From an uncultured Clostridia bacterium (lineage in GTDB: Bacteria > Bacillota > Clostridia > Oscillospirales > Acutalibacteraceae): a DNA stretch of 25,312 nt. The position numbers and the translations under genes are program-made. The stretch spans positions 1-25,312 of the forward strand of contig CAMHOI010000001.1 of assembly GCA_946186725.1 (NCBI GenBank), read 5' to 3'. Below are positions 5-4,799 of this stretch, piece by piece (the stretch's first letter is position 1; every line of letters starts with the position of its first letter). The notes beneath the pieces are model-generated. The model was not told the DNA's origin and made no database searches. It saw nothing but the letters and a program-made list of their open reading frames with translations.

Positions 5-2233
5 TTAAGCGATGGGGTAGTCGTCGGGGAAGAAGGTGTACATCAGCAGCCAGATGGCGTCCTCGTCGGTGATCTCGCCGTCGCCGTCGTAGTCAACGGG
101 CTGCTCAACGGGGTAATCGTCGGGGAAGAAGGTGTACATCAGCAAATAGATCGCGTCCTCGTCCGTGACGGCGTCGTCGCCGTCAAGGTCGCCGGAGACG
201 TAGCTGCGCACGGTTAGGATCCCGGCCACGACCGGCAAGGCCGCGTTGCCGCCGCCGTCGTTGACGGACACGCTCAGACCGACGGCGTAGTCGCCCTCGG
301 CGGCGTCCTCCCCGACCGCGAAGGTCAGCGTCAGCAGGGCGCCGTTGGCGTCGGCAACGCTGCCGAAGGTCATGGCGCCTTGTCCCTTGTTCGCGTCCCA
401 GGTTTTCATCAGGGCGTTATCGACGACCCACTCCACTCCCGTCAGCGTCAGCGCGGACGCGTCGTAGGCGACGGCGGCGGCTCCGATGGAGCGGACGGGA
501 TCGGCGTTCTTGAGGACAGCCGTGAGCGTCACGGTTTCGCCGGGTCGGGCGGATCGGCTTTCCACGACGGCCTGCGGATCGTTTTCACCCACAGCGGGAA
601 CCGGATCCGCATTTTTGTGGAAACGAAGGCGGATGGCGGTCTCTTCGCTGATGGTTCCCGTCAGACTGCCGGAAGCGACGCCGTCGTAGGTGTAGCCCTC
701 TTTGGCAACGATGTTTTTGATTTCATACGTCGCGCCGACGGGCAGTTCCTTCCAGCAGTCGCTCTCGCACGTGGAGTCCAGCACGCCGTTGATATACACG
801 TCGGCATAGCCCGGGAAGTAATCGGAGTTTTCCCCGTCGACCTCACCGTTCAGGTCGAGGTGATACGTCGGCGTCCATTTGGCATAGAGCGTTGCGTCGC
901 GGGTAATGTCGTCCGGCAAATCCCAGGCAAAAGTCCCGGCCGTGATTGTCGGCGTATCAGCGCCGTAAATATACCGCTCATTTGCTTCCCCGCCGCCGGT
1001 GCCGTCGCCGTAATAATGGTCAAACCGATACCCCTCGCGGGTGGGCGGGGTGATGACGGTGATCTCGTTGGTACAAGCCGAATCGGAATAGAACTTGTGT
1101 GTTCCGGCCTTATAGTAGAAATCCCGCGTTCCCGGCGTCCCGCCGTTGGCGTTCAAGGTGATGTGGACGACAGTGGAAAGGGGAACAAGCTCCCAGATCT
1201 GATCGGAAGCGCCGGTGTTGGTCTCCAGGCGCACGTTGGTGCCGTCCAGACCGAGCACAAGGTTGGCGTAGGTGGCGTTGTGGATGATATAGCCGCCGCT
1301 TACCGACTCGAATTTCCAGTGCATATCGCTGCGAAGTTCTCCGCTGCCGGGGTAAACGTTTATGTTGGTGCCGTTGGACGGGTTGTCGCTGGCGGGATTG
1401 ATCCATAGCGAAGAGTCAAAAGAGGTTTGCAGCGCATAGGATTTGTTCGTCCCGCTTACCACGAACCGTTGCTGCGCGTTGGAAGCCAACGCGGCCACGG
1501 ACACGTTGGCCTTGCTCGCCGTTCCGGTCACATTCAAATAGGTAGACGTGGATTTGTTGCGGAGGTAATATGTAGCCGAAGCGATATCGGAATAGGTGAC
1601 AGAGGTAGGAGAAGTTCCTCCAAAGTGAATGATTCCATCAAATGTGTAATTGCTACTTCTGTATGAGTAGGAAAAATTCGCTATGCTTTGAACGATTGGC
1701 GTTCCTTCGCTTATTCGTTCGCCGCCTATAGTCCACGCAGAACTTTCAGAGTAGTACACGTTTCCATTAAGAATCGCGTGAATAAAGCAAGTATGTCCGT
1801 AAATAGCTCCAGCATCACCAACGCCTTTTTCAAAACCAACGAGAATATTGTAAGCATCCTTCGTCCCGTTGTTCGTAATGGCGTTTAATGCGGATTCCAC
1901 AGTATAATTCGATGCAGAATAAGCGGCAACGCTGTATCCTCCTGTGCTCTGCGCCTTGTTTTTATAATTGTCAAACTCATCGTTGCCGTTTCCGCTGACG
2001 TACGATGTGTTAATGCCTAATATGACCAGTTGCCAGTTGACATAGGTTGCACAGTATCCATCAAACGAACTGCGGCCGCTTCTTGACAGCGCGGTGTTAT
2101 AGGTGGATTTGATTTGTGCTTTGACTTGGTCTCCGCTCGCCGCTCCGGCCGTGACCATGCCCATTGGCACGATCGCCGCGACCAGCAGAAGCGAGAGCAG
2201 CAGGGACAAGAATTTGCTGGAAAACTTTTTCAT
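5..2233 (-). CDS. Secreted multidomain protein: signal peptide, CHAP-like cysteine peptidase/amidase, ricin-B lectin, InlB B-repeat, Ig-like domain, cohesin, dockerin (742 aa)
   Basis: Signal peptide MKKF...VTAGA; RBS GAAAGGAA 7 nt upstream. CHAP-like triad GYC61, YGH147, YSE163. Ricin-type Q-x-W/F motifs (QQRF, MHWKF, DQIW) at aa ~219-351. InlB B-repeat marks (ITLNANGG, PTREGYRF, TLYAKWT) at aa ~356-455. Cohesin-like segment (SARPGETVTL...VAYDASALTL...LLTLTFAVGEDAAEGDYAV) at aa ~553-676. Duplicated Ca-binding dockerin at aa 677-742. Confidence 0.85.
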   Translation of the reverse strand: MKKFSSKFLSLLLSLLLVAAIVPMGMVTAGAASGDQVKAQIKSTYNTALSRSGRSSFDGYCATYVNWQLVILGINTSYVSGNGNDEFDNYKNKAQSTGGYSVAAYSASNYTVESALNAITNNGTKDAYNILVGFEKGVGDAGAIYGHTCFIHAILNGNVYYSESSAWTIGGERISEGTPIVQSIANFSYSYRSSNYTFDGIIHFGGTSPTSVTYSDIASATYYLRNKSTSTYLNVTGTASKANVSVAALASNAQQRFVVSGTNKSYALQTSFDSSLWINPASDNPSNGTNINVYPGSGELRSDMHWKFESVSGGYIIHNATYANLVLGLDGTNVRLETNTGASDQIWELVPLSTVVHITLNANGGTPGTRDFYYKAGTHKFYSDSACTNEITVITPPTREGYRFDHYYGDGTGGGEANERYIYGADTPTITAGTFAWDLPDDITRDATLYAKWTPTYHLDLNGEVDGENSDYFPGYADVYINGVLDSTCESDCWKELPVGATYEIKNIVAKEGYTYDGVASGSLTGTISEETAIRLRFHKNADPVPAVGENDPQAVVESRSARPGETVTLTAVLKNADPVRSIGAAAVAYDASALTLTGVEWVVDNALMKTWDANKGQGAMTFGSVADANGALLTLTFAVGEDAAEGDYAVGLSVSVNDGGGNAALPVVAGILTVRSYVSGDLDGDDAVTDEDAIYLLMYTFFPDDYPVEQPVDYDGDGEITDEDAIWLLMYTFFPDDYPIA
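15..190 (-). repeat. Duplicated dockerin Ca-binding repeat (96-bp / 32-aa period)
   Basis: Near-identical segments start at 15 and 111. They encode DLDGDDAVTDEDAIYLLMYTFFPDDYP and DYDGDGEITDEDAIWLLMYTFFPDDYP. Confidence 0.92.
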
Positions 2234-2288: not shown

Positions 2289-2317
2289 ATTATATCTGTA
2301 TTACAGATATTTGTCAA
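2289..2317 (-). promoter_or_regulatory. Perfect-consensus sigmaA promoter for the 742-aa secreted protein
   Basis: Minus strand TTGACA (2317-2312), 17-nt spacer, TATAAT (2294-2289), about 55 nt upstream of the ATG at 2233. Confidence 0.9.
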
Positions 2318-2335
2318 TATCTGTGTTGCAGATAG
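2292..2335. promoter_or_regulatory. Tandem palindromic operators TATCTG-N5-CAGATA (probable XRE binding sites)
   Basis: O1 ATATCTGTA-T-TACAGATAT (2292-2310) is a perfect inverted repeat. O2 ATATCTGTGTTGCAGATAG is at 2317-2335. The period is 25 bp, and the pair flanks the -35 and overlaps the -10. Confidence 0.8.
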
Positions 2336-2360: not shown

Positions 2361-2591
2361 ATGACGGTGATCTTTCGGAATCTGCGAAGCATCAGGGAGG
2401 ACCGCGACCTGCGGCAAAAGGACGTTGCCGCCATTCTCAACGTATCCCAAAACACCTACTCCCAATATGAAACGGGCGTGATCGCTCTGACCGCGGAGGT
2501 GCTGATCCGCCTGGCCGACTACTATGACGTCAGCGTCGATTATCTCCTCGACCGCACCGCCTGCCCCGCCGTCAACCGTGACGCCTGCTGA
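2361..2591 (+). CDS. XRE-family helix-turn-helix transcriptional regulator (76 aa)
   Basis: LRSIREDRDLRQKDVAAILNVSQNTYSQYETG...LIRLADYYDVSVDYLL is the HTH_3 pattern. RBS AAGGAGGGG lies immediately upstream. Confidence 0.93.
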   Translation: MTVIFRNLRSIREDRDLRQKDVAAILNVSQNTYSQYETGVIALTAEVLIRLADYYDVSVDYLLDRTACPAVNRDAC

Positions 2592-3164: not shown

Positions 3165-4514
<1,350 letters not shown>

Positions 4515-4799
4515 TTACTGCTCGACGGCGTAGACGCTGACCTGCTTGCGGTCGCGGCCCAGGCGCTCGAACTTGACCTTTCCGTCGACGAGGGCGAAGA
4601 GGGTGTCGTCCGAACCCTTGCCGACGTTCGTGCCGGGATGGATGTGGGTGCCGCGCTGACGGACGAGGATGTTGCCGGCCAGGACGAACTGACCGTCGGC
4701 GCGCTTGACGCCGAGACGCTTGGCCTCGGAATCACGGCCGTTCTTGGTCGAGCCCATACCTTTTTTATGAGCGAAAAGCTGAATGTCAATGCGAAGCAT
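4515..4799 (-). CDS. rpmA: 50S ribosomal protein L27 with Prp-cleavable N-terminal extension
   Basis: MLRIDIQLF|[15 protein letters not shown].... Start reassigned to the ATG at 4799, which has RBS GGAGGTG upstream. Confidence 0.98.

Follow-up and report, generated by a model that had tools for sequence, protein, structure and literature searches.

We analysed a stretch of 25,312 nucleotides, hereafter the window, from an uncultured Clostridia bacterium of the family Acutalibacteraceae (GenBank assembly GCA_946186725.1, contig CAMHOI010000001.1, positions 1 to 25,312 of the forward strand). The window is one entire contig (C1) of a metagenome-assembled genome (MAG) of 1.05 Mb in 170 contigs, which is 65% complete and has a G+C content of 63%. 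At its left end lies an intact, single open reading frame (ORF; 5..2233, minus strand) with an ATG start and no internal stop codons, encoding a 742-aa protein that we refer to as the hydrolase. From the N-terminus, the protein consists of a signal peptide, a CHAP-like hydrolase domain, a ricin-B lectin, an InlB-type B-repeat, a beta-sandwich, a cohesin and a dockerin; the whole sequence has no match in NCBIfam. Cohesin-dockerin assembly is usually discussed as a polysaccharide-degrading device. An earlier note on this DNA had read the gene as a wall hydrolase whose own cohesin and dockerin could polymerise or relay further enzymes, in a complex that does not degrade fibre.

The contig stops 4 nt past the stop codon of the hydrolase gene. 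An identical protein (742/742 identities), with the same neighbours, is encoded on an independent metagenome contig of 115.8 kb (L091), and the gene is therefore real and intact. We attribute its position at a contig edge to repeated dockerin DNA, which breaks or misjoins assemblies: contigs C61, C107 and C156 of the same MAG break within or just past dockerin-coding repeats, and on a contig from a third assembly (L090) the hydrolase gene is joined to the region 3' of a different dockerin gene, that of contig C100. This chimeric join lies at the dockerin repeat (L090:2600-3646 against C100:2007-3052) and changes the last residue of the protein from A to D. Hence, the apparent downstream neighbours on L090, a 196-aa ORF and a MATE gene, were rejected as products of an assembly chimera, the stretch being 100% identical to the region 3' of the C100 dockerin gene.

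The catalytic head and middle modules

The signal peptide (aa 1-32, MKKFSSKF...TAGAAS; 2138..2233, on the minus strand like all modules of the protein), recognised from the sequence, is of the Sec type and lacks a lipobox Cys. It is followed by a domain (aa 33-210; 1604..2137) that we identify from its homologues, an AlphaFold2 model and its structural neighbours as a CHAP-like, papain-fold Cys amidase/peptidase. With a word-indexed search we retrieved 111 proteins whose match falls on this N-terminal domain, at about 40-65% identity. Fifty-nine homologous domains were aligned: C61 and H147 do not vary among them, E163 is conserved in at least 90%, and we propose these three as the catalytic residues; the same triad had been picked out in the earlier note. 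The AlphaFold2 model of the domain has a predicted local distance difference test (pLDDT) score of 94.6. In this model C61 opens a helix (model residues 32-42) and H147 opens a strand, so that the structural marks of CHAP (invariant Cys and His, Cys at a helix N-terminus, papain-like alpha+beta fold) are all present.

Structural comparison pointed the same way. The best Foldseek matches to the catalytic model in the PDB were CHAP endolysins, with weak E-values, and nearly all of the top 50 hits in an exhaustive VIA structure search were papain-fold enzymes. The top VIA neighbours were the peptidoglycan amidase Tse1 (Z 8.2), Gsp amidase (Z 7.9) and CHAP endolysins (Z about 7.5), values of 7-8 being, according to the tool's own warning, in a range common for unrelated models. 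We therefore base the papain-fold assignment on the uniformly papain-fold neighbour list together with the conserved residues, rather than on Z alone. The papain-fold neighbours also take in C39 leader peptidases, deubiquitinase-like effectors, IdeS and staphopain.

The Pfam CHAP profile (PF05257) matches aa 59-164 below threshold, at 18.1 bits against a cut-off of 26 (E 0.004). CHAP is the sole Pfam family to recur among members of the catalytic family, in 14/59 at E<=0.1 (best 1.1e-4), and the Atlas feature neighbours of the domain are mainly CHAP, NlpC/P60 and Amidase_5, all at <0.9 and thus a lead only. Searching a profile of the family against PDB sequences found nothing, Foldseek of the model against Swiss-Prot models gave noise only, and an hhalign comparison of the family with one CHAP-bearing protein was not significant, though the YGH motif aligned. 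We conclude that the module is a distinct CHAP-like family within the NlpC/P60-CHAP superfamily, outside Pfam CHAP; it thereby defines a widespread CHAP-like family beyond Pfam coverage.

In homologues, the catalytic domain has choline-binding repeats, SLH, SH3_3 or CW_binding_2 as fusion partners, and seven homologues carry dockerins; in one protein (P0006), a head of this family occurs together with Flg_new and a cohesin-dockerin pair of the classic kind. Given the modelled fold and these wall-binding fusion partners, members of the family are most likely wall hydrolases. The hydrolase protein itself has no Pfam peptidoglycan-binding module. A phage endolysin origin was rejected, since phage genes are absent from the vicinity and the gene is flanked by obg, mini-RNase III, ribosomal protein genes and rny.

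Between the catalytic head and the cohesin lie three further modules. The ricin-B type beta-trefoil lectin (aa 211-352; 1178..1603) matches RicinB_lectin_2 at 34.9 bits, above the cut-off of 25.6, and PDB entry 8bad_A at E 1.2e-5. Direct tests of the InlB-type B-repeat (Flg_new / List_Bact_rpt; aa 353-455; 869..1177) were weak, with E 0.13 in Pfam and E 0.23 for PDB entry 2y5p. Flg_new-annotated repeats of two other proteins (P0011 and P0014) share 41-62% identity with the segment, which, judged by this sequence similarity, is clearly homologous to the Flg_new/TIGR02543 repeats of other proteins. Thus, both the lectin and the InlB repeat described in the earlier note are borne out, the second by homology. 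The remaining module, an all-beta spacer domain (aa 456-545; 599..868), is modelled by AlphaFold2 as a beta-sandwich of nine strands (pLDDT 83-94); it matches no Pfam family and recurs in six relatives (P0003, P0009, P0015, P0020, P0026 and P0028).

The cohesin-dockerin cassette

The cohesin (aa 546-677; 203..598) was identified from Pfam, structure and phylogeny. Pfam Cohesin (PF00963) matches at 29.5 bits on the protein and 33.6 bits in the genome scan, above the cut-off of 24.1. An AlphaFold2 model of aa 455-742 (288 residues) has a pLDDT of 92.2 and a predicted TM-score (pTM) of 0.67, and aa 551-677 of this model superpose on solved type I/III cohesins with Z 15.5 and a root-mean-square deviation of 2.2 A over 125 residues. 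The top 41 structural matches to the segment are cohesins without exception. The earlier note had named the fold of this region as a point on which its proposal could fail; in the model, the region has a true cohesin fold, the nine-stranded beta jelly-roll, and dockerin binding by it is putative. In a tree of cohesins, those that directly precede a dockerin, the hydrolase's included, form a clade of their own (support 85/88), separate from the N-terminal cohesins of anchor proteins described below.

A complete two-repeat dockerin (aa 678-742; 8..202, with the stop codon at 5-7) directly follows, as had been noted from the protein sequence. Its two near-identical repeats each comprise a D-x-D-x-D-G...D calcium loop and then a helix, the repeat pattern of Dockerin (PF00404); the loops are DLDGDDAVTDED and DYDGDGEITDED, and the helices after them lie at aa 691-702 and 723-734. 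On its own, the segment aa 677-742 of the hydrolase (protein P0001) scores 12.6 bits against Dockerin_1, under the cut-off of 22.9. A profile built from 32 modules of the same subtype (consensus GDLDGDGxVTDxDAIYLLMYTFFPEDYP) matches solved dockerins across both repeats at E 3e-7, 30/32 members of the subtype match Dockerin_1 (best E 3e-7), and the hydrolase's dockerin scores 130 bits against the subtype model. Since the single-sequence score fails yet the family-level profile is significant, we refer to it as a divergent dockerin subtype, the 'DAIYLLMYTFFPxDYP' subtype.

We searched a profile of the cohesin-dockerin segment against 1.84 billion cluster representatives and obtained 39,071 proteins at E<=0.001, 1045 of them at E<=1e-30. 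In the best 150 matches, which range from 208 to 5033 aa, cohesin and dockerin mostly form one contiguous stretch, usually at the C-terminus. Judged by sequence, the tail is thus a recurrent cassette that is widespread in gut and rumen Clostridia, and the architecture is not rare, contrary to what the earlier note had implied; the cassette is already found on CHAP, C39-like and M23 cargo. A Pfam tally of cargo in 76 cassette proteins gave Flg_new (8), Big_2 (5), Big_3 (5), LRR_5 (4), CHAP (3), Peptidase_C39_2 (3), M23 (1) and SH3_3 (1), with no glycoside hydrolase (GH) family among the 25 families listed. Seven of the best 150 cassette proteins consist of little beyond a signal peptide, a cohesin and a dockerin (about 208-270 aa), and the existence of these bare proteins makes an adaptor or relay role in trans plausible.

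At one locus (L024:2-8198, plus strand), a run of four genes encodes a 1175-aa protein with cargo ahead of the cassette, a bare 225-aa protein of signal peptide, cohesin and dockerin, a 214-aa protein of signal peptide and dockerin, and a cohesin-first protein of >1055 aa. This run is a compact, operon-like connector set. In the literature, of which our coverage was partial, we found no description of such a cassette, C-terminal and without a linker, on cargo of the wall-hydrolase or adhesin kind, or of the FFPxDYP subtype.

Probable surface anchoring and control, and the proposed assembly

We collected 79 genome loci with the hydrolase's dockerin subtype, from rumen and gut MAGs of Oscillospiraceae, Acutalibacteraceae, Lachnospiraceae and unclassified Clostridia. 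Fifteen dockerin ORFs in these loci also bear a cohesin. A further 28 ORFs are cohesin-only; 26 of these begin immediately behind a dockerin gene, and their products start with a signal peptide and a cohesin. A C-terminal transmembrane helix was scored in 22 of the 25 complete cohesin-only proteins, mostly followed by a basic KK/KR tail. There is thus good circumstantial evidence that the dockerin-subtype family serves cell-surface display on membrane-tethered cohesins. Examples of such pairs, in which the gene for a membrane-anchored cohesin (signal peptide, cohesin, linker, transmembrane helix and KKK) follows a dockerin gene within a few bases (loci L012-L083), are L049:4262-6979, L042:4256-5512 and L044:2485-3969.

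Counting the other dockerin and cohesin genes of the genome had been suggested as a check on the hydrolase. The MAG encodes at least five dockerin proteins of the subtype, that is, at least four besides the hydrolase, and three cohesins, on contigs C1 (the hydrolase's own), C8 and C85. The protein of contig C100 (1-2010, plus strand) has a BspA-type leucine-rich repeat (LRR) region and a dockerin nearly identical to that of the hydrolase; that of contig C61 (P0134) has a subtype dockerin and no Pfam domain; and that of contig C156 carries its subtype dockerin at the N-terminus. The fifth (P0131; L094:5001-8345) is a 1114-aa B-repeat protein whose dockerin is 79% identical over aa 666-741. Its gene adjoins rpmG-secE-nusG on the long contig, about 1.3 kb past the window's right end, and dockerin genes thus flank the window on both sides. 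A GH20 (hexosaminidase-type) gene (L095:249-2078, plus strand) lies directly upstream of the gene for P0134.

The cohesin protein of contig C8 (2-778, minus strand) has a signal peptide, a cohesin that groups with the anchor cohesins in the tree, and then Cys-rich repeats shared with the C100 protein, before it is cut by the contig end. Each repeat is about 45 residues long (HSFTNYVSDGNATCLEDGTKTAKCDxCDATDT...). The repeats stand on the C-terminal side of the cohesin or LRR part, ahead of the C-terminus, and may serve as spacers stabilised by metal or disulfides; similar stretches follow cohesins at two other loci (L053 and L059). Contig C85 carries a gene pair (L098:1265-3217 and 3233-4759, plus strand): a protein with SH3_3, unassigned, cadherin-like and classic dockerin modules, and then a protein with a signal peptide, a cohesin, a cadherin-like domain and a C-terminal transmembrane helix. 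The C85 cohesin is distant from the matching type, at 17-19 bits.

Cargo on the dockerin-bearing ORFs of this genome thus comprises the CHAP-like hydrolase, BspA-type LRR, B-repeats, SH3_3/cadherin-like domains or no recognisable domain. No fibre-degrading GH domain occurs on any of the dockerin ORFs recovered from the genome, in agreement with the earlier note's view that the complex is not a fibre-degrading one, and no multi-cohesin scaffoldin of the kind that marks a cellulosome was found in it. We conclude that the cohesin-dockerin network of this genome is small and non-cellulosomal.

The composition of the hydrolase gene is a mosaic. G+C content at third codon positions (GC3) is 0.81 in the signal peptide, which is host-like, 0.44 in the catalytic domain, 0.72-0.76 in the ricin, B-repeat and beta domains, 0.86 in the cohesin and 0.91 in the dockerin; the housekeeping genes of the window have 0.86-0.94. 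The breakpoints coincide with the boundaries between signal peptide and catalytic domain and between catalytic domain and lectin. The head is therefore a recent foreign import that took the place of whatever once stood between the signal peptide and the scaffold, both of them native. A search of 40 relatives, 13 of them genomes of the same genus, gave no member of the catalytic family at the thresholds used, nor was the hydrolase's dockerin subtype found in those 13; the subtype is strong in two other genera of the family.

The genes on the long contig are ordered obg, mini-RNase III, XRE (divergent), hydrolase, a gene for a 169-aa protein, and rny. A sister species (Obg 92% identical) carries different genes behind mini-RNase III and lacks the XRE-hydrolase pair at this position, which makes the pair an accessory islet. 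The divergent gene (2361..2591, plus strand) encodes a 76-aa XRE-family regulator, for which helix-turn-helix matches (HTH_3, HTH_19, HTH_31) were recorded on the same gene in L090 and L091. Facing it is the hydrolase promoter, a sigma-70 sequence TTGACA-N17-TATAAT that matches the consensus at 12/12 positions, about 55 nt upstream of the hydrolase ATG. Two inverted repeats, TATCTG-N5-CAGATA, overlap and flank this promoter (promoter and repeats together 2289..2335, minus strand, from promoter matching and reading of the sequence). The XRE protein is thus a likely repressor of the hydrolase gene, in what looks to be a simple repressor switch. Downstream of the hydrolase gene (L091:14853-15362, plus strand), the 169-aa protein has a signal peptide, a Ser/Ala/Pro-rich low-complexity linker, a transmembrane helix and a KKKK tail. 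This layout is like the stalk-and-anchor portion of the proteins that bear anchor cohesins.

Overall, we interpret the hydrolase as a secreted, modular wall-type enzyme that is held at the surface and can be stacked through its cohesin-dockerin cassette, a reading to which we give somewhat better than an even chance. The papain-fold Cys-His-Glu head would most likely cleave an amide or peptide bond of peptidoglycan, and the ricin-type lectin and InlB-type B-repeat would probably steer the enzyme to a glycopolymer of the wall or surface. From the gene neighbourhoods of relatives, the calcium-loaded dockerin would plug into the cohesin of a membrane-tethered anchor or of another cassette protein, and such docking would keep the enzyme on the surface of its producer. 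The enzyme's own cohesin could then serve as a socket for a further dockerin protein of the same subtype, such as the BspA-type LRR protein, the B-repeat protein or others, and another copy of the enzyme itself is a possible occupant. Adhesins and lytic enzymes would in this way form short stacks joined non-covalently, with expression probably held by the divergent XRE repressor.

Several observations weigh against this interpretation. By score, the head lies outside Pfam CHAP, and its structural Z values fall where those of unrelated models are also common. The 65%-complete genome yielded no full-length cohesin protein of the matching type with a membrane anchor, that of C8 being cut and that of C85 distant, and the 169-aa protein encoded downstream on the 115.8-kb contig is without a cohesin. 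The cassette cohesins stand apart from the anchor cohesins in the tree, so their binding partner may differ from the one assumed. Finally, there is no linker to speak of between cohesin and dockerin (at most five residues), and the AlphaFold2 pLDDT runs unbroken at 93-95 across their junction, dropping to 78 between the beta-domain and the cohesin. Together with the pTM of 0.67, these features of the model would be as compatible with a rigid unit packed in cis as with a connector acting in trans.

The alternative that survives best, although we consider it unlikely, is that the hydrolase is a housekeeping autolysin that remodels the producer's own wall, in cell separation or sporulation-related turnover, and uses the cohesin-dockerin tail for retention, with no antagonism. 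Homologous catalytic domains do sit on classic self-wall-binding modules, and the window and genome encode other wall-remodelling functions (PG_binding_1 proteins, sortase/LCP, the SH3-dockerin protein of C85). However, the gene is accessory, with a catalytic family that turned up in none of the 40 relatives searched; its catalytic segment is compositionally foreign; and it sits in an islet with its own repressor that the sister species lacks at this place. From the foreign head and the XRE control, we lean slightly towards an accessory, conditional lytic or antagonistic function over housekeeping.

Slightly less probable, in our view, is a cassette locked in cis, with the cohesin packed on its own dockerin in the manner of an X-module-dockerin or as an auto-inhibited pair. 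There would then be no polymer or relay, and the tail would act as a single anchoring tag for a membrane cohesin. The short junction without a pLDDT dip suits this idea, as does the pTM, which fits a rigid unit of about 195 of the 288 modelled residues; moreover, the cassette cohesins are a separate clade and never occur without a dockerin, their indels covary with the dockerin subtype, and anchor-type cohesins encoded beside dockerin genes already supply a partner. Mean-field direct coupling analysis of 141 cassette sequences (effective number, Meff, 123) gave no evidence of cohesin-dockerin contacts. Its top inter-domain couplings were rejected as contacts because each of them involves indel columns (A586, V603-D605) and the FFPxDYP tail, a pattern that stems from the division of cassettes into those with FFP-type and those with classic dockerins. 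On the other side, a pair closed on itself would leave the bare proteins of signal peptide, cohesin and dockerin without a purpose, and the cassette cohesins score strongly as ordinary cohesins, with Z 15 against cohesins that bind dockerins. These bare proteins speak for action in trans, as does the published self-recognition of the amylosome protein Amy4, discussed below, which shows that self-recognition in trans occurs.

Least probable is a non-peptidoglycan substrate, with the hydrolase an adhesin-protease rather than a lysin, acting on a host or bacterial surface glycoprotein through a lectin that recognises Gal/GalNAc: this would accord with the peptidases and effectors among the papain-fold neighbours, the lack of a Pfam peptidoglycan-binding module, the adhesin-like domains that dominate cassette cargo and the fact that ricin-type lectins commonly bind galactosides, but the structures nearest to the head are those of peptidoglycan or gamma-glutamyl amidases (Tse1, Gsp amidase, CHAP endolysins), CHAP is the only recurrent Pfam match, and the fusion partners of homologous domains are those usual for wall hydrolases.

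Wider meaning and known systems

The hydrolase is one of a very large number of apparently uncharacterised proteins of gut and rumen Clostridia in which adhesin-like and wall-cutting cargo is carried on a fused cohesin-dockerin tail, often with a membrane-anchored cohesin as a partner gene product. A bolder proposal, which we hold tentatively and think unlikely as a whole, is that the linker-less tail is a general, non-covalent daisy-chain cassette of non-cellulolytic gut and rumen Clostridia: cassette proteins would dock onto each other and onto cohesins tethered to the membrane, giving mixed surface fibres of adhesins and lytic enzymes. The hydrolase would be a contact-dependent antibacterial head in such fibres, with a catalytic domain recently exchanged by recombination and a dedicated repressor. 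Should the tail act as a connector, cellulosome parts would serve many commensals for building modular surface structures, some of them perhaps antibacterial. Such structures would bear on gut colonisation and competition, and the tail would offer orthogonal plug-and-socket pairs for protein display. The gain from the single gene is modest: one more example of the architecture, made more useful by its clear compositional domain swap and its simple regulatory region.

In its head, the hydrolase resembles CHAP enzymes (PlyGRCS, Ly7917, LysGH15, Gsp amidase) and Tse1 of the type VI secretion system (T6SS), with which it shares an alpha+beta papain-like fold, a Cys at a helix N-terminus and a His on a strand, at Z 7.5-8.2. 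It differs from them in scoring below the Pfam CHAP cut-off, in having about 12-15% identity to them in structural alignments and in belonging to a separate, widespread family. Unlike genes for phage endolysins or T6SS Tse1, the hydrolase gene lies outside any phage or T6SS context.

A papain-like Cys peptidase module in a cohesin-dockerin assembly has a precedent in RflaF_05439 of Ruminococcus flavefaciens, which combines two NlpC/P60-like modules with an X-dockerin and whose function was inferred from structure (PMC3573020). In both proteins, a C-terminal dockerin brings the peptidase module into the assembly, and in both the function is deduced from structure. RflaF_05439 differs in that its dockerin forms a dyad with an X-module, it has no cohesin, it belongs to a true cellulosome and its catalytic family is another one.

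Monovalent adaptors with one cohesin and one dockerin may build fibre-like structures, and cohesins anchored by membrane helices have been described (PMC13463774). For adaptors of the R. flavefaciens ScaC/ScaH type, type-switching, spacing and fibre-like extension have been proposed (PMC13463774, PMC12484212). The bare proteins of the cassette family, composed of signal peptide, cohesin and dockerin, look like adaptors of this type. However, ScaC and ScaH have no catalytic domain and their modules are separated by linkers, whereas the cassette is found at the C-terminus of many unrelated cargoes in apparently non-cellulolytic bacteria.

The closest counterpart is Amy4 (Sca1) of the Ruminococcus bromii amylosome, a non-cellulolytic cohesin-dockerin system in a member of the gut Clostridia. 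The cohesin of Amy4 binds the dockerins of other proteins as well as its own, so that Amy4 can act as an adaptor and may multimerise (PMC4611034). The cargo of Amy4 is a GH13 amylase, whereas the hydrolase carries papain-fold, putatively wall-cutting cargo, a dockerin of another subtype and a conserved cohesin-dockerin cassette without a linker. In overall build the two are alike: each is a secreted enzyme that joins a catalytic module, one cohesin and one dockerin in a single polypeptide.

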